DNA from: a virus
Reading direction: 5' to 3' (one strand)
Length of the DNA: 5,580 bases
Virus record (IMG/VR): IMGVR_UViG_3300045988_003785
This document shows, in pieces, positions 613 to 5,580 of this stretch. Made by a program: the position numbers and the translations under genes. Numbering within the stretch: position 1 is the stretch's first letter; the number at the start of each line of letters is the position of its first letter. The notes below the pieces were generated by a model. That model made no database searches and was not told where the DNA came from. It saw only the letters and a program-made list of their open reading frames with translations.

Positions 613-715
613 AGTTCGCAAGTCCAAAGACGCAAAAATTTACAACAAGACCGCACGAAAGACCAAAGCTATCAATCTGGGAAGCGGCGCAATGCGAGGA
701 GGCATTAGATTATGA
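596..715 (+). CDS. Small, highly basic DNA-binding/packaging protein (phiX174 J-like, gokushovirus VP8/ORF8-like), 39 aa: MTKRSKVRKSKDAKIYNKTARKTKAINLGSGAMRGGIRL
   Basis: Absent from the ORF track because it is under 60 aa. ATG at 596 with AGGAGA (583-588) and a 7-nt spacer; TGA at 713-715 overlaps the next ATG as ATGA. It has 13 K/R against 1 acidic residue in 39 aa. From memory, the K-rich N-terminus, the ..KTA..T.. segment and the C-terminal MRGGIRL resemble the small basic proteins of gokushoviruses. Confidence 0.7.
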   Translation: MTKRSKVRKSKDAKIYNKTARKTKAINLGSGAMRGGIRL

Positions 716-951
716 TTAACGTGTATGGCATCTATGACCAGTGCGCTATGTGCTACATTACCACGTTCAACGAGAGGGACGACAAAGTAGCCGAACGCAA
801 CTTTAAAATCGCACTGATGGACGAAAACAACATCATGAGCAAAACGCCGAGCGACTACCGACTTGTAAGACTTGCAAAATTCAACGAGCGCAACGGCGAT
901 TTTGAGGAAACAAAGGAGAACATCTACGATGGCATTTCGCTCAGTAAGTAA
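712..951 (+). CDS. VP5: VP5-like non-structural protein of gokushoviruses, 79 aa
   Basis: ATG at 712 with GAGGAGG (696-702) upstream. The pattern vYgIYDq...A.RnF...d.nn.msk.PsDYrLv.la.Fne.nGdf matches my memory of the conserved VP5/ORF5 pattern (IYD ... A.R.F ... PeDY.L..iGefd..tG). I have run no alignment. Confidence 0.6.
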   Translation: MINVYGIYDQCAMCYITTFNERDDKVAERNFKIALMDENNIMSKTPSDYRLVRLAKFNERNGDFEETKENIYDGISLSK

Positions 952-1411
952 TTTCCGAAAAAACGTAACGGCAAAACCAACCGAAGCCGGGGAAAGAGTG
1001 AGACGCACATATCTCTGGGAACGCAACGAAAAAGGCGAAAAGGTACTGAAACTCGACCAAATCATCGACCAGCAAGCGGAAATCGACTCCTACTTGGATG
1101 AAACCAAAATAGAAAACATCATCCGACGGGCAAGCGTCGACCCGAACATCGCGGAACGAATCGCACCGGACTTAGGCGGCGGCATCCAAGACTTTACCGA
1201 GGTGCCGCATACGTTAGCCGAGATTCAAAACGTCATGATTCGCGCAGAACAAATCTGGGACGAAGTGCCGAAAGAAGCAAAGCTCAAATTTGATAACGAT
1301 GTCAATAAATTCATCGCATCGTTTGGCACAGTCGAATGGGCTAAAAATCTGGGTATCTACACCGACGTCAAAACACCCGAAGCGACAGAAGCAACGGAGG
1401 AAAAAGAATGA
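929..1411 (+). CDS. VP3: VP3-like internal scaffolding protein, 160 aa from ATG 929
   Basis: The ORF-track frame is open from 872, but ATG 929 has AGGAG (914-918) upstream, whereas ATG 872 lies deep inside VP5. The C-terminal half (..DFTEVPHTLAEIQNVMIRAEQIWDEVPKEAKLKFDNDVNKFIASF..) fits my memory of the VP3 pattern (D/Y.ea.n....A...F..LP...r..F.NdP..F..f). The stop overlaps the VP1 ATG as ATGA. Confidence 0.65.
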   Translation: MAFRSVSNFRKNVTAKPTEAGERVRRTYLWERNEKGEKVLKLDQIIDQQAEIDSYLDETKIENIIRRASVDPNIAERIAPDLGGGIQDFTEVPHTLAEIQNVMIRAEQIWDEVPKEAKLKFDNDVNKFIASFGTVEWAKNLGIYTDVKTPEATEATEEKE

Positions 1412-3111
1412 ACAGAAACAAAGACGCGGGATTTAACCAAGTACCGCGACTGGACATCACAAGAAGCCGTTTCAAAAGGCGGCAGGACGTCAAATTAACG
1501 CTTGACGCAGGAAAGCTCATCCCATTTTACGTGGATGAAGTATTGCCGGGTGATACTTTCAGCATCGACCAAGCGGCAATCATCCGCATGACAACGCCCA
1601 TCTTTCCAGTTATGGACAACTGCTACATGGACATCTATTATTTTTTCACTCCTAACCGAATCCTTTGGAAAAACTGGAAGCGATTTATGGGCGAGAACGA
1701 TACAGGGCCGTGGGCACAGAAGCGAGAATACACAATCCCACAAATCAGAATCTATGCAGACAGCCGCAATGACGTACCGCTGGAAGGAAGCCTCATGGAC
1801 TACATGGGGATACCGACAAAAGCATGCAAAAAAGGCAATAAAAATACAGAGTTCGAAGTAAACGCACTTCCATTCAGAGCATATGCCATGATATGGCAAG
1901 AGTGGTTCAGAGACCAAAATGTAGATAATCCTGCCATAAACAGCGACGGAGACGAAACAGTAAGCTACTCAGACGTCAACGACGATAACAAAATAGACGA
2001 AATGCTTCAAGAAGCATATCGAGGCGGCAGACCGTTACCAGTCAACAAGTTCCACGACTACTTCACATCGGCAACGCCGAGCCCACAGAAATCGCTAGAA
2101 CCAGTAACCATTCCGCTGACTGGAAGTGCACCGCTAGGAATGTACAGCCCGGCAACAGGAAAAGTAACAATCAACAGCGCCGAAATGAAAAAAATAGCAA
2201 AAGATGCAGGACTGTTGAGCACAGGCAGCACCTTTAACGCCACGGATTGGGACGTCGGAGACGGACCAATAGCAAACCAAGGACTAGCAGTAGGAAGAAA
2301 TACAGGGTCCATATACAGTGGAATAACCTTAGGAGCAGACCTCTCAAAGGTCAACGCAACGACTATAAACCAGCTGCGACAGGCGTTCCAGGTGCAAAAG
2401 TATTACGAAGAACTTGCACGAGGCGGCAGCCGATACCGTGAGATGATTTATTCGCTGTTCCATACCAAAATCAGCGATAAAACCGTGCAGATTCCGGAAT
2501 ACCTTGGTGGTACACGTATCACTATCAACATGAGTCAGGTCATCCAGACCAGCGGCACGACTACTGAGAGTCCGCAGGGTAACACGGCGGCAGTATCCGT
2601 GACGCCGTACAATGGAAGCATGTTTACGAAAAGCTTCGAGGAACACGGCTATGTTATCGGTGTATGTTGCATCCGGCATGACCATACCTACCAGCAGGGA
2701 CTCGAGCGGATGTGGAGCCGCAAAACAAACCTGGACTTTTATTACCCGGTGTTTGCAAATCTGGGCGAACAAGCAATTCTCAAGAAGGAAATCTATCTAA
2801 CCGGCACGGAAACCGACGAACAGGCGTTCGGATACCAAGAAGCGTGGGCAGAATACCGAATGAAACCAAACCGAATCTGTGGCAAATTCCGGAGCAACGC
2901 AACGGGAACGCTGGATAGTTGGCACTACGGCGACAACTACAAAGAAACGCCAAGCTTAAGCCAAGCATGGATGAAAGAAGGAAAAGAGGAAATCCAGAGG
3001 ACGCTAGCGGTAGAAAATGAACCGCAATTTATCATGGACACTATCATCGACAACACAAGCGTAAGACCCATGCCTATGTACAGCATTCCGGGACTCGTCG
3101 ACCATCACTAA
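1408..3111 (+). CDS. VP1: Major capsid protein VP1 (Microviridae F-protein family), 567 aa
   Basis: GGAGG at 1396-1400 with a 7-nt spacer. Hallmark blocks are present: RSRF.R....K.T.DAGKLIPFYVDEVLPGDTF, PIFPVMDN, FFTPNR.LW.NW..FMGE, HDYFTSATPSPQK, TIN.LRQAFQ.QK..E..ARGG.RY.E, IPEYLGG. The size is typical of gokushovirus VP1. Confidence 0.97.
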   Translation: MNRNKDAGFNQVPRLDITRSRFKRRQDVKLTLDAGKLIPFYVDEVLPGDTFSIDQAAIIRMTTPIFPVMDNCYMDIYYFFTPNRILWKNWKRFMGENDTGPWAQKREYTIPQIRIYADSRNDVPLEGSLMDYMGIPTKACKKGNKNTEFEVNALPFRAYAMIWQEWFRDQNVDNPAINSDGDETVSYSDVNDDNKIDEMLQEAYRGGRPLPVNKFHDYFTSATPSPQKSLEPVTIPLTGSAPLGMYSPATGKVTINSAEMKKIAKDAGLLSTGSTFNATDWDVGDGPIANQGLAVGRNTGSIYSGITLGADLSKVNATTINQLRQAFQVQKYYEELARGGSRYREMIYSLFHTKISDKTVQIPEYLGGTRITINMSQVIQTSGTTTESPQGNTAAVSVTPYNGSMFTKSFEEHGYVIGVCCIRHDHTYQQGLERMWSRKTNLDFYYPVFANLGEQAILKKEIYLTGTETDEQAFGYQEAWAEYRMKPNRICGKFRSNATGTLDSWHYGDNYKETPSLSQAWMKEGKEEIQRTLAVENEPQFIMDTIIDNTSVRPMPMYSIPGLVDHH

Positions 3112-3156: not shown

Positions 3157-4035
3157 ATGGGAGTTTTAGCAACACTCGGAACGGGGCTCCTCAAAGCAGT
3201 AGCGCCAAGCCTAATAGGAGCAGCAGCAAATAAACTGTTTGGCACAAGCTCAAGCTACGGACAGCAAGGACAAGCAAACAGTCAAAGCAGTGGCTCAAGC
3301 TGGTCGCAAGGCTCAAGCGACAGCGCAAGTTTCAGCAACGGCGGCACAAACGACGAAATGAACAAAACCATTGCGGCACTAGCAAACCAGATAAGTCAAG
3401 GAAACATGGCCGGACAGCAAAAGTTCAATCGAAATTCGATGCTTATGCAAATGGGATACAACACCTTAGGAGCAATCCAGCAAGGCATATACAACCACAT
3501 CGAACAGCAAACAGCCATGAACTACAACTCAGCAGAAGCCGCAAGAAACAGAGCATGGCAAGAGCAGATGAGCAACACAGCTTACCAAAGAGCCGTCGAA
3601 GATATGCGAAAAGCAGGAATCAATCCAATCTTAGCATACACACAAGGCGGCGCAAGCACTCCAAGCGGAGCGCAAGGAACAATCGGGAGTGCAAGCATGG
3701 GCATGGCATCCAGTAGCGCACTAGGAGCAACAGCGTTACCAGGCATAAAACAAGACGGTAGTTGGAGTAGTCATAGCGAAGCATGGAGTCACGCAGAAAA
3801 CGCAGCAGAGAGCATCCAACAAGCCATCATGTCGAGCAGCTCAAGCCCGGTAAGACTCAAAGGAGACATGGAAGCCATAGCCGAGACGGCAGTAGAAAAC
3901 GCAGCCAAACTCAAAGAAAAATTCGCGGCCTTACCAGTGGCAGACAAAGCAAAAAATGAGCTTGCAGGACGATTAGAAAATACAAGAAGATACTTACCCA
4001 CAGGCTACATGAGCATAAATCCGAGAGGTAAATAA
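3157..4035 (+). CDS. VP2: Minor capsid / DNA pilot protein VP2 (H-like), 292 aa
   Basis: The N-terminus is hydrophobic and Gly/Ala-rich (MGVLATLGTGLLKAVAPSLIGAAANKLFG). The signature block NRAWQEQMSNTAYQRAVEDMRKAGINPILAY is typical of gokushovirus VP2. It sits immediately after VP1. Confidence 0.9.
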   Translation: MGVLATLGTGLLKAVAPSLIGAAANKLFGTSSSYGQQGQANSQSSGSSWSQGSSDSASFSNGGTNDEMNKTIAALANQISQGNMAGQQKFNRNSMLMQMGYNTLGAIQQGIYNHIEQQTAMNYNSAEAARNRAWQEQMSNTAYQRAVEDMRKAGINPILAYTQGGASTPSGAQGTIGSASMGMASSSALGATALPGIKQDGSWSSHSEAWSHAENAAESIQQAIMSSSSSPVRLKGDMEAIAETAVENAAKLKEKFAALPVADKAKNELAGRLENTRRYLPTGYMSINPRGK

Positions 4036-5055
4036 ATGGGATGCAATAAGCCGTTAATTCGGTTTTATGTACCTCATAACAGAGAGGCGAGCGGGCGAGT
4101 ATACACACTCGCCTCTTTTAATAAGATACATAAGACAAACCTTAGGTATGAAGACCTAATGTACAGGAAAGACGTAATGATGATACCATGCGGACAATGT
4201 ACCGGGTGCAGACTACGCAAACGCAAAGACTGGTCAACGCGAATGGAACTAGAAGCATACGGACACAACAAAGAAACCATCTGGTTTATTACACTGACTT
4301 ACGATGATGACCACGTACCAACACAGGACACAGAAACAGGTGAAATCTATAAAGGCGGCATAAACATCTGGAAAGGCACCTCAGAGCGTCCAAGAACGGC
4401 GCAAACGCTGAGCGTAGAGGATACCCAACTATTTATAAAAAGGCTCAGAAAAGCCTTCAAAGAGCCTCTGAGATACTTTTTAGCAGGAGAGTACGGAGAC
4501 AACACAGCAAGACCGCACTATCATATGATACTATATGGATGGCATCCAGACGATTTAAAACCAATCCACAAATTGTCAAGACACGGTCATTATACAAGTG
4601 ATAAACTGGTAAAAATCTGGGGACAAGGCACAGTGGACATAGCGCAAGCAACGCCAGAAACATATAATTATGTTGCAGGGTATGTAACTAAAAAGCTGTA
4701 CGGCAACGACAAAATGCGTTACCAAAAAATGGGTTTAATACCGCCATTTTGCACCATGAGCCGTAAGCCGGGACTCGGGGATAAGTGGTTTGAAGACAAC
4801 CAAGAACGACTCTGGCAACAGGGATACATACAGCTTACCAACGGCAAAAAAGCGGCAATCCCAGAATACTATTGGCGAAAGCTGGAGGCTGAAAACCCAG
4901 AAAAAGCATGGAGAATCAAGAAATATCGACAGCAAAAAGCTATAGCATCCCTAATCGAAAGAAACGCGGAAACCGATAAATCATATGCAGAGCAACTAAA
5001 GGACAAAGAAACATCTATGTCCAAAAAAATGAGAAAAGCCAAAGGCGTATTTTGA
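4036..5055 (+). CDS. VP4: Replication initiation protein VP4 (HUH rolling-circle endonuclease, phiX174 A-like), 339 aa
   Basis: The start abuts the VP2 stop (TAAATG), with GAGGT at 4025-4029. It has PCGQCTGCR (Cys cluster), motif 1 FITLTY (4285-4302), HUH motif PHYHMILY (H-Y-H at 4516-4524), and the two-tyrosine motif YNYVAGYVTKK (Y212 and Y216, nt 4669-4683), as in superfamily-I Reps with the Y-x-x-x-Y spacing. Confidence 0.95.
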   Translation: MGCNKPLIRFYVPHNREASGRVYTLASFNKIHKTNLRYEDLMYRKDVMMIPCGQCTGCRLRKRKDWSTRMELEAYGHNKETIWFITLTYDDDHVPTQDTETGEIYKGGINIWKGTSERPRTAQTLSVEDTQLFIKRLRKAFKEPLRYFLAGEYGDNTARPHYHMILYGWHPDDLKPIHKLSRHGHYTSDKLVKIWGQGTVDIAQATPETYNYVAGYVTKKLYGNDKMRYQKMGLIPPFCTMSRKPGLGDKWFEDNQERLWQQGYIQLTNGKKAAIPEYYWRKLEAENPEKAWRIKKYRQQKAIASLIERNAETDKSYAEQLKDKETSMSKKMRKAKGVF

Positions 5056-5066
5056 GACTTTGGTGT

Positions 5067-5115
5067 CACTCAGCCAAGTAACTATCAAGTAAGCTACTTG
5101 GCTGAGTGTTTTATT
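5067..5115 (+). terminator. Strong hairpin plus T-tract after VP4 (operon terminator; also a stable ssDNA hairpin)
   Basis: CACTCAGCCAAGTA (5067-5080) and TACTTGGCTGAGTG (5095-5108) form a perfect 14-bp stem with a 14-nt loop, followed by TTTTATT (5109-5115). It starts 12 nt after the VP4 stop. Confidence 0.7.
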
Positions 5116-5125
5116 GATTCGTTAA

Positions 5126-5167
5126 ATGCACACGCACGCGCACGTAATCGCGCACGCGCACGTGCAT
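5126..5167. repeat. GC-rich alternating purine/pyrimidine block with a 13-nt direct repeat (CGCACGCGCACGT x2)
   Basis: CGCACGCGCACGT occurs at 5133-5145 and again at 5151-5163, an 18-nt period. Strict R/Y alternation runs over 5126-5146 and 5149-5167. The block is flanked by inverted AATGCAC (5125-5131) and GTGCATT (5162-5168). Confidence 0.85.
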
Positions 5168-5190
5168 TATATTATTATTTTTATTATTAA
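5166..5190. other. 25-nt tract of pure A/T (candidate DNA-unwinding element)
   Basis: ATTATATTATTATTTTTATTATTAA has no G or C for 25 consecutive bases. It sits between the GC block and the TAG repeats. Confidence 0.5.
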
Positions 5191-5197
5191 CTTGTTG

Positions 5198-5212
5198 TAG
5201 TAGTAGTAGTAG
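5198..5212 (+). repeat. (TAG)5 trinucleotide repeat, preceded by (TTG)2; DnaA-trio-like
   Basis: TAG x5 at 5198-5212, read directly, with TTGTTG at 5192-5197. Read 3'->5' each unit is GAT, the DnaA-trio unit described for Bacillus subtilis oriC. The repeat is certain; the function is inferred. Confidence 0.5.
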
Positions 5213-5290
5213 GGAGTGTTGAAATGTTGAATACTATGAATTTTTATCCTTGGAACGATATTTTTTGGCTAATTTTAATGTTGATACTTT

Positions 5291-5299
5291 TGTGGATAA
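5291..5299 (-). promoter_or_regulatory. Perfect match to the DnaA-box consensus (TTATCCACA on the minus strand)
   Basis: The + strand reads TGTGGATAA, the exact reverse complement of the 9-mer TTATCCACA. A second box, TGTGGAAAA (5355-5363), fits the relaxed TTWTNCACA consensus. Binding is untested. Confidence 0.5.
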
Positions 5300-5328
5300 T
5301 TTGTTGAAATGTTGAGAATGTAGCAATA

Positions 5329-5348
5329 TGCACAAAAACCTTTGTGCA
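5329..5348. other. 8-bp hairpin inside the 9-mer array
   Basis: TGCACAAA (5329-5336), loop AACC, TTTGTGCA (5341-5348): a perfect stem. Confidence 0.5.
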
Positions 5349-5407
5349 ACATTTTGTGGAAAACCTGTTGAAAGTGTTGAAAGTGTTGAAAACGCAATTA
5401 GAGGCAG

Positions 5408-5471
5408 TTCGGCAGCTGGCCGAAAAGTCACGTCATGCTCTTCGTACGGCGCACCGCGCCTAGCGCATGAC
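5408..5471. other. GC-rich hairpin cluster upstream of the promoter
   Basis: Three stems: TTCGGC / loop AGCTG / GCCGAA (5408-5424); GTCATGC (5432-5438) paired with GCATGAC (5465-5471); and, enclosed by the second, GGCGC / loop ACC / GCGCC (5448-5460). Confidence 0.5.
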
Positions 5472-5499
5472 CTATCAGAAAAAGTTTCAAAAAAAACTA

Positions 5500-5528
5500 T
5501 TGGCAAATCGACAGTTATATGGTACAAT
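5500..5528 (+). promoter_or_regulatory. Sigma-70/SigA-type promoter with extended -10
   Basis: -35 TTGGCA (5500-5505), a 17-nt spacer, TG at 5520-5521, and -10 TACAAT (5523-5528). An A-rich, UP-like stretch lies at 5479-5496. The predicted start is near 5535 (equivalent to 10), just upstream of the SD and ATG of ORF59. Confidence 0.7.
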
Positions 5529-5580
5529 GCAGATAGTAAAGGAGGTATAAAGATGAGAACTGTCAATCATCTGAGCATCA
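5526..5580. repeat. Terminal direct repeat, copy 2 (duplicates the ORF59 SD and first 9 codons)
   Basis: Identical to 1-55. ATG 5553 corresponds to ATG 28. Confidence 0.95.

Follow-up and report, generated by a model that had tools for sequence, protein, structure and literature searches.

The IMG/VR virus record IMGVR_UViG_3300045988_003785 (5,580 bases; the window below is this whole stretch) is a circular gokushovirus genome of 5525 nt, the 55-nt terminal repeat being an assembly product, and its sole long non-coding region (5056-5552) carries a module that resembles a bacterial replication origin. We consider, with moderate confidence, that positions 5166-5392 are a compact mimic or captured copy of the unwinding module of Clostridia-type chromosomal origins, the basal unwinding system (BUS), which would be opened by host DnaA on the double-stranded replicative form (RF) of the phage. 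The module consists of an A/T tract, a (TAG)5 array, the tetranucleotide GGAG, a tandem pair of DnaA-box-like repeats and two clusters of four further boxes, with all boxes in the same orientation (Table 1). Judged by its sequence, this is the architecture of the BUS of a bacterial oriC, in register.

In the BUS, DnaA bound to a box pair grows onto the adjoining DnaA-trios as a single-strand-binding filament, opening adjacent AT-rich DNA (PMC8287927). The system is defined by at least three consecutive NAN trios, with consensus 3'-GAT-5', followed on their 3' side, at a distance of 0-16 bp, by a DnaA-box in the same strand; in a tandem pair, the better box has a modal distance of ~13 (PMC8287927). 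The window has five TAG trios (5198-5212), a G-rich spacer (GGAG, 5213-5216) and a neighbouring tract that is 96% A/T (5166-5191), and its boxes begin 4 and 12 nt past the last trio, the register of the B. subtilis oligonucleotide oHM558. Positions 5198-5235 read TAGTAGTAGTAGTAG-GGAG-TGTTGAAA-TGTTGAATACT, whereas the strand used in the B. subtilis unwinding assay reads TAGTAGAAGTAATAGTAG-GGCC-TGTGGATT-TGTGGATAAGT, in which boxes #7/#6 are TGTGGATT-TGTGGATAA at 8-nt spacing (PMC8287927). Phage and B. subtilis therefore agree in strand, in the length of the spacer (4 nt, GGAG vs GGCC) and in the 8-nt distance from box to box. The predicted BUS of C. botulinum, (TAG)6-GGCT-TGTTGATA-TGTTAATAA (PMC8287927), also has a 4-nt spacer, and its boxes mean that the TGTTG type is already present in a predicted Clostridial BUS. 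Across bacterial oriC BUS elements and their counterparts in Clostridia, parts, order, strand and register are as in the phage (at least three TAG trios, tandem boxes at 8-9-nt spacing), with additional boxes of the same orientation 55-90 nt away. The differences lie in setting and size: bacterial oriC is found between dnaA and dnaN, whereas the phage module is carried by a 5.5-kb rolling-circle single-stranded DNA (ssDNA) phage, is only ~230 bp long, occurs in either orientation to the genes and has a phage-specific motif, AACTTGTTG, between A/T tract and trios. As it is situated between VP4 and the first gene of the row and not beside dnaA/dnaN, it is BUS-like but not a chromosomal oriC; by the sequence criteria given above it would qualify as a BUS-type origin module, and as neither a chromosomal oriC nor an iteron-plus-Rep plasmid origin.

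An initial annotation of the window had described a DnaA-type origin module resembling oriC in the non-coding region of a microvirus, composed of a GC island, an A/T tract, (TAG)5, GGAG, ten DnaA-box-like 9-mers, GC hairpins and a promoter. Each of these parts was present where it had been placed, and the overall reading gains support from the BUS register, from the ~93% specificity for bacterial origins described below, from the host-type boxes and from the relatives, although the most diagnostic part, (TAG)5 as an array of DnaA-trios, had gone unrecognised. The ten co-oriented boxes were also confirmed, with those at 5291 and 5355 matching the strict consensus TGTGNATAA perfectly and with one mismatch, respectively; the remaining eight depart from it at 2-3 positions, the repeat proper is TGTTGAAA(A) and not the canonical TGTGGATAA, and the slot of the "perfect" box at 5291 is not conserved, since 63% of relatives have T at position 4 there and so mostly TGTTGAAAA. 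Allowing up to one mismatch, TGTTGAAA occurred 15 times in the window against 6.3 +/- 2.6 times in shuffled sequences (0/200 shuffles reached 15), and nine of these 15 copies fell on the + strand inside 5217-5391, within 175 nt. The combined trio-spacer-box pattern occurred once in the window and in none of 200 shuffles, even with two mismatches. Strict DnaA boxes were in marginal excess (11 across the window against 4.6 expected; 2/200 shuffles reached 11): counting them does not by itself support an origin, and the decisive signal is that of the trios and the box dialect.

Table 1. Features of the window, with the origin-like module listed before the flanking elements and the genes.
Feature	Position	Strand	Remarks
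A/T tract, candidate DNA-unwinding element	5166-5191	+	A/T at 25/26 bases (96%)
AACTTGTTG motif, consensus ATATAACTTGTTG, phage-specific	5188-5197	+	>90% conserved
Sequence TTGTAGTAGTAGTAGTAGGGAGTGTTGAAATGTTGAATACT	5195-5235		
(TAG)5, DnaA-trio-like array (5'-TAG-3' = 3'-GAT-5')	5198-5212	+	
GGAG, short G-rich spacer from trios to first box	5213-5216	+	'GG' conserved in relatives
Tandem box pair TGTTGAAA-TGTTGAATA, starts 8 nt apart	5217-5233	+	DnaA-box pair of the putative BUS
Second cluster, four co-oriented boxes: 5279 TGTTGATAC, 5291 TGTGGATAA, 5302 TGTTGAAAT, 5310 TGTTGAGAA	5279-5318	+	
Small hairpin TGCACAAA/TTTGTGCA between box clusters	5329-5348	+	kept in close relatives only
Third cluster, four co-oriented boxes: 5355 TGTGGAAAA; 5366, 5375 and 5384 TGTTGAAA	5355-5392	+	spacing 11, 9, 9
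All ten box starts	5217, 5225, 5279, 5291, 5302, 5310, 5355, 5366, 5375, 5384	+	
Terminator-like hairpin and T-run, right after VP4/Rep stop	5067-5108	+	17-nt arms, 94% complementary
GC-rich imperfect palindrome, alternating purine/pyrimidine, beside A/T tract	5125-5168		accessory
Two GC-rich hairpins	5400-5471	+	fold z = -2.0 (+ strand), -2.8 (- strand)
Sigma-70-type promoter TTGGCA-17-TACAAT, extended -10 TG	5500-5528	+	
VP5	712-951	+	
Scaffold VP3	872-1411	+	
Capsid VP1	1408-3111	+	
VP2	3157-4035	+	
HUH Rep VP4, 339 aa	4036-5055	+	stop codon at 5055

We scanned one genome per species from 185,579 bacterial and archaeal species with the phage-derived 22-nt pattern GTAGTAGTAGGNNNTGTKGAWA. At least 120 bacterial loci matched, where simple arithmetic predicts ~17 by chance, and their neighbourhoods were searched with DnaA and DnaN proteins that had been confirmed by Pfam at six of the matched loci. 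Among the matches listed, 112 of 120 were within 2.5 kb of dnaA or dnaN (~93% specificity), and 86 of 120 were situated exactly between the two genes with the boxes always facing dnaA, comparable to incC of B. subtilis. Richardson 2016 is said to have described the DnaA-trio/BUS work in that species, with incC boxes #6/#7 and the AT-rich 27-mer. Because the matches cluster at dnaA/dnaN, the phage motif is near-diagnostic of chromosomal replication origins. The similarity also extends to the higher-order layout of the boxes: measured from the last trio, boxes start at 4, 12, 66, 78, 89, 97, 142, 153, 162 and 171 in the phage, at 4, 13, 67, 78, 88, 118... in the origin of a Ruminococcus (L173) and at 4, 12, 55, 66, 78 and 89 in that of a Lachnospiraceae (L137).

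The majority of the origins retrieved had TGTGGAWA boxes, the canonical form of Lachnospiraceae and other Clostridia. TGTTGAWA clearly dominated two dnaA-dnaN origins of gut Oscillospirales, with 13 such boxes vs 2 canonical ones in Ruminococcus sp. L173 and 12 vs 7 in the Oscillospiraceae origin L159; the same bias was found with fewer boxes in L186 (5:4), L213 (4:1), L200 (4:1) and L138 (3:0), and L195 was tied at 4:4. The phage would thus carry a dnaA-dnaN origin of the Clostridia type in shortened form and in the box dialect of Oscillospirales, and Oscillospiraceae/Ruminococcus are likely hosts of the phage, because its box variant dominates their dnaA-dnaN origins. The strong Shine-Dalgarno sequences and extended -10 promoter of the phage fit such a Clostridia-type/Oscillospirales assignment. 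Among the matches listed, the most phage-like array was that of L245, a metagenome-assembled genome of Mesoaciditoga sp. (Thermotogota) with 14 TGTTGAWA and no canonical boxes as well as trios and a tandem pair, so the TGTTGAAAA dialect is not confined to Oscillospirales; Clostridial queries detected neither dnaA nor dnaN in this 8-kb stretch. In domain IV of DnaA from L173, L159, L186, L138, L213 and L200, Tyr replaces the His of the ...DH(S/T)T(V/I)xH... recognition helix and Ala replaces the Pro of PRQ. These substitutions could underlie the TGTTGAAAA dialect; as they are confounded by phylogeny, and L192 with canonical boxes also has the Tyr, we did not use them as evidence.

Among relatives, the non-coding region matched 49 GenBank gokushovirus records, and two IMG/VR pattern scans added to these gave at least 137 distinct module sequences in total, from as many gokushovirus/microvirus genomes whose VP1 was 37-90% identical to that of the window. 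The module was absent from the classical gokushoviruses SpV4, Chp2 and phiMH2K. Where present, it kept its boxes in position within 1-2 nt, including those at offsets 66, 78, 89, 97 and 142, 153, 162, 171, and the boxes followed the logo T-G-T-[T/G]-G-A-[A/T]-A, variation being limited to the two positions at which TGTTGAAAA and TGTGGATAA differ. The proximal box was TGTGGAAA in 51% and TGTTGAAA in 49% of relatives. In the 135 relatives aligned, the three box-proximal trios were invariant and the fourth was degenerate, in agreement with the reported minimum of three (PMC8287927), and an AT-rich stretch occupied the position of the A/T tract in all relatives as well as in the bacterial origins retrieved. 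A reading of TGTTGAA as a Spo0A 0A-box (TGTCGAA) was rejected, as position 4 was only T or G in the 135 relatives and never C. Inter-box spacers varied freely, with 1-nt indels between clusters (offsets 138 to 142 among relatives). Two contigs carried tandem duplications, of the box pair and first spacer in L125 and of the start of the third cluster in L335, by which the array can evidently expand through slippage or recombination.

The module was not bound to one place in the genome. Among the matches listed, 21 of the 137 genomes, including KT264784, KX513876 and MG945447, had it in the orientation opposite to the genes, and in one clade it was situated between VP2 and VP4 (e.g. KT264784). 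Function in either orientation and at two locations would make it a self-contained cassette acting on duplex DNA. We also considered whether the region might be coding. The minus-strand open reading frame (ORF) 5234-5566 (110 aa) had no Pfam match, relatives had 1-nt indels between the box clusters and conservation was confined to boxes and trios; a 134-aa ORF, which gene callers obtain by extending 28-207 upstream, was rejected on the same grounds, also with no Pfam match. Free spacers, 1-nt indels and the lack of a family match together rule out a degraded gene. Gene callers stretch the 59-aa ORF that starts at ATG 28 upstream over the third cluster (5328-5580 on to 207; L368:264-668 and equivalents), and GenBank records MG945138, MG945391 and MG945233 are annotated with "similar to hypothetical protein" over the module; such annotations across it are probably artefacts.

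A second version of the module was found in four distant IMG/VR microvirus contigs (L297:4229-4263, L299:3355-3389, L361:60-88 and L364:2332-2360), in which VP1 is ~37% and VP4 ~29% identical to those of the window. It consists of an A/T tract, (TAG)5-6, GCAT, TGTGGAAA-TGTGGAAA, a ~35-nt spacer and four or five TGTGGATAA boxes. In these contigs it directly follows VP4 and points against the direction of the genes. By its parts it appears to be an independent BUS built from canonical boxes.

Complete trio-spacer-tandem-box modules with further clusters were also observed in viral contigs of the size of double-stranded DNA (dsDNA) phages: L281, L337, L255, L287, L362, L365, L320, L352, L345 and L360. 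In the 28-kb contig L281 the module (1209-1230) adjoins a RecT gene and resembles the Lachnospiraceae origin L137; at L337:2301 an RNA ligase and a metallophosphatase are nearby, and L255, L287 and L362 are contigs of 95-160 kb. No dnaA or dnaN was found within the stretches of these contigs that were examined. Mimicry of origins might not be limited to microviruses; alternatively, host DNA may have been misclassified as viral in some of these contigs.

Two comparisons that the initial annotation had proposed now bear on its origin reading, and both speak for it: the box variant is that of Oscillospiraceae and Ruminococcus origins, and the module, far from being absent from close relatives, is kept in at least 137 related genomes. 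In the mechanism we propose, host DnaA would bind the ten co-oriented boxes, in the TGTTGAAAA dialect of Oscillospirales origins, on the double-stranded RF and, starting at the tandem pair (5217-5233), would oligomerise onto the (TAG)5 trios, upon which the adjacent A/T tract (5166-5191) would melt. Most likely, host helicase and replisome would then load and the RF would replicate in theta mode, which would amplify or maintain it without Rep and would couple phage replication to the DnaA-ATP status of the host; Rep (VP4) would still supply single strands for packaging. We postulate that the phage in this way probably recruits the host initiator DnaA.

Several points weigh against this reading. 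Both BUS boxes of the window have three mismatches to TGTGNATAA, so that the claim depends on the dialect of a presumed host: boxes within two mismatches of TGTGGATAA / TGTGNATAA occur at this site in many relatives and not in the window, whose BUS boxes are one mismatch from TGTTGAAAA and thus within a limit of two mismatches to the motif of the putative host's own origins. That host is in turn assigned only from the box dialect, and DnaA binding, unwinding and their sequel are deduced from anatomy, in contrast to the anatomy itself, the BUS register, the specificity for bacterial origins, the conservation and the orientation independence, which are observed. All ten phage boxes are co-oriented, whereas bacterial origins have boxes of mixed orientation; strict co-orientation may reflect avoidance of hairpins in an ssDNA genome. 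Plasmids with only oriC are unstable or poorly tolerated in some bacteria, and as microviruses are already fully equipped for rolling-circle replication, the need for a second mode is not obvious. Lastly, the strongly conserved, phage-specific AACTTGTTG beside the trios is left unexplained by the BUS model alone and hints at a link to Rep.

That link is the core of the main alternative, which we think unlikely and in which DnaA would assist rolling-circle initiation: melting would expose AACTTGTTG as the single-stranded substrate of the HUH Rep (VP4), and the module would be the plus-strand origin with no theta replication. HUH nucleases require a single-stranded substrate. AACTTGTTG sits exactly between A/T tract and trios, is more than 90% conserved and was absent both from the bacterial origins retrieved and from the second type of microvirus module. 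Its hexamer AACTTG is also present in the phiX174 origin (CAACTTG^ATATTAATAAC), where the nick site is CAACTTG^A; AACTTGTTG is possibly a Rep recognition/nick site, or else a helicase-loader site. VP4, at 339 aa, is also far smaller than protein A of phiX174. Yet AACTTG is not invariant (AATTTG, TATTTG and TTACTTG in L002, L003 and L014, respectively) and is missing where the second module type is present, and a 6-mer matched post hoc is weak evidence. A nick site in the module would moreover flip the packaged strand in the 21 inverted genomes, and third-codon skews are equal in both groups, a comparison that is uninformative because classical gokushoviruses already differ in the sign of the skew. 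We know of no nick mapped in any gokushovirus.

A DnaA sink or regulator in the style of datA or of an autoregulated dnaA promoter, which would halt host initiation or tune phage transcription with no role as an origin, would profit from ten boxes per RF multiplied by RF copy number, which would bind much DnaA, and from the position of the window's module ~110 nt upstream of the main promoter. A sink, however, could do without trios, without a G-rich spacer at a set distance and without an A/T tract, and it is these parts that are best conserved, which makes a pure sink unlikely; conservation of the trios favours a role in unwinding, and the module shifts in position and orientation relative to promoters and genes. 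The suggestion in the initial annotation that DnaA controls the adjacent promoter is disfavoured for the latter reason, and we consider the sink or regulator as a whole improbable. The same annotation had allowed for an origin of the complementary strand; on the packaged single strand, a hairpin with a DnaA box might for instance nucleate an ABC-type primosome. Positions 5288-5298 of the window can indeed pair with 5327-5337 (10/11), partly rebuilding a duplex box, but this pairing is neither conserved nor part of the minimum-energy fold, and the phage modules contain no reverse-oriented boxes at all and hence no duplex box within one single strand. Orientation independence argues against a single-strand hairpin origin as it does against control of one promoter, the module being on the opposite strand in the 21 inverted genomes, and we regard such an origin as very improbable.

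Just as improbable, in our view, are iterons for a phage-encoded replication, packaging or partition protein that resemble DnaA boxes by chance, a reading that the initial annotation had also listed. Direct repeats in an 8-12-nt register typify iteron origins and centromeres, and the majority of the boxes depart from the strict DnaA consensus. The trio-spacer-box pattern, on the other hand, is specific for bacterial dnaA-dnaN origins to the extent given above, the box variant and layout are also found in Oscillospirales origins, and the second microvirus lineage has canonical DnaA boxes in the same architecture; one architecture in two box dialects in two lineages is hard to reconcile with a phage-encoded iteron-binding protein. 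Pfam searches of the window proteins recognised capsid, scaffold, ORF5 and HUH Rep and no others, thus no DNA-binding initiator besides HUH Rep, and no accessory ORF was common to all 111 near-complete module-bearing genomes, a comparison of limited sensitivity for small proteins. The comparative data have largely refuted the iteron reading already.

Measured against known replicons, a BUS-type module opened by DnaA finds its closest parallels in the laboratory. Minichromosomes based on oriC and chimeric M13-oriC phages have been used to reconstitute oriC replication, and like the phage they are small circular replicons (in M13, the RF of an ssDNA phage) in which a duplex carries a DnaA-only origin; they are constructs, whereas the phage module is natural, is conserved by selection across at least 137 genomes and falls well short of E. 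coli oriC in length. P1 oriR, pSC101, RK2 oriV and lambda ori are theta origins of the iteron type that also use DnaA boxes, and they are analogous to the phage module in combining repeats beside an AT-rich unwinding region, a mobile replicon and dependence on host DnaA, which the phage would share. Their iterons bind an initiator encoded by the replicon and their DnaA boxes are accessory, whereas the repeats of the phage are DnaA-box variants with trios, and neither Pfam nor ORF co-occurrence detected a replicon-encoded theta initiator in the phage. The plus-strand origin of phiX174 (CAACTTG^ATATTAATAACACTATAGACCAC, inside gene A), from the same family, likewise has AACTTG followed by an A/T-rich context, but it is part of the Rep gene itself, lacks both DnaA boxes and trios and shares only 6 nt with the phage module. 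DnaA boxes outside oriC are known from the R6K A-site/ABC primosome and from datA, where they serve priming on ssDNA or titration of DnaA; the R6K A-site requires a hairpin with a duplex box, absent in the phage module, and datA is without trios or an unwinding element. In the searchable literature, coverage of which is incomplete so that an earlier description is possible, we found nothing linking gokushoviruses or Microviridae with DnaA or a DnaA box, no DnaA-trios in any phage and no phage with an oriC-like DnaA-box origin.

If the BUS reading is true, this would be the first natural ssDNA phage with an origin-unwinding module of the bacterial chromosome type, and the microvirus cycle would gain either a second replication mode driven by the host initiator or host-assisted opening of the rolling-circle origin. 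Further-reaching, and in our view doubtful, is the possibility that these phages are dual-mode replicons, in which a DnaA-only oriC-type origin would let the RF persist as a host-synchronised minichromosome in Oscillospirales (an episomal carrier state with no integrase), Rep rolling circle would serve virions only, the box dialect would set host range and the arrangement would recur in the second microvirus lineage and some dsDNA phages. A host-opened origin would offer a concrete explanation of how gokushoviruses persist for long periods in individual guts although they have no lysogeny genes. Almost no hosts are known in this phage group, and the box dialect could serve as a sequence-based predictor, pointing to Oscillospirales for the window's type of module and to canonical-box hosts for the second type. 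A natural, selection-tested minimal DnaA origin of ~230 bp would be a possible vector origin for intractable gut Clostridia and possibly a compact substrate for studies of the BUS mechanism. The module is conserved and widespread in gut viromes. The same phage was found in at least 13 bulk gut-metagenome contigs, and its nearest GenBank relatives, at ~80% identity, are faecal "Gokushovirus WZ-2015a" and "Microviridae sp." records.

The elements that flank the module (5067-5108, 5125-5168 and 5432-5471) are outside the BUS. The hairpin at 5067-5108 (DNA fold -16.2 kcal/mol, z = -6.3) is a probable terminator of VP4 and not part of the origin module. The palindrome at 5125-5168, which only part of the relatives have, forms a 20-bp hairpin on the minus strand via G:T pairs, with a folding energy of -18.3 kcal/mol where the plus strand reaches -11.1 kcal/mol; it is Z-DNA-prone, and A:C mismatches of the + strand turn into G:T pairs on the - strand. 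This asymmetry, seen likewise in the palindrome of L002, suggests that the minus strand, or an antisense RNA, is where the structure is read. In L011 the palindrome stays after VP4 although the core module is inverted, and in MG945447 the module is after VP4 but flipped, with the flanking GC palindrome unmoved. The second of the GC-rich hairpins (5432-5471, GTCATGCTCTTCGYACGGCGCACCGCGCCTANCGCATGAC) recurs almost unchanged, and only in gene orientation, in 53 of the 114 genomes with a forward module; neither the rest of these nor any of the 21 genomes with an inverted module has it. It could be a signal specific to one strand, either a complementary-strand origin or a Rep hairpin. In other relatives there is a different hairpin, which has CGCACGGC and a GGCGC...GCGCC stem in common with it.

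Every gene of the window genome is on the + strand, and the promoter at 5500-5528 drives the gene row from ATG 5553 (= position 28), which is preceded by a strong Shine-Dalgarno sequence, AAAGGAGGT. No known RNA family was recognised, the sole Rfam match being at chance level (E = 0.75) and, with 19.7 bits, well below the gathering score of 50, and a blastn search of PLSDB for plasmid relatives gave no match. Third codon positions on the coding strand (1408-3111 and whole genome) were strongly A-rich and T-poor, with an AT skew of +0.38 and a GC skew of -0.19, the cause of which could be host codon usage or strand-specific mutation; phiMH2K resembled the window in this, whereas SpV4 and Chp2 were opposite (T-rich, as in phiX174).

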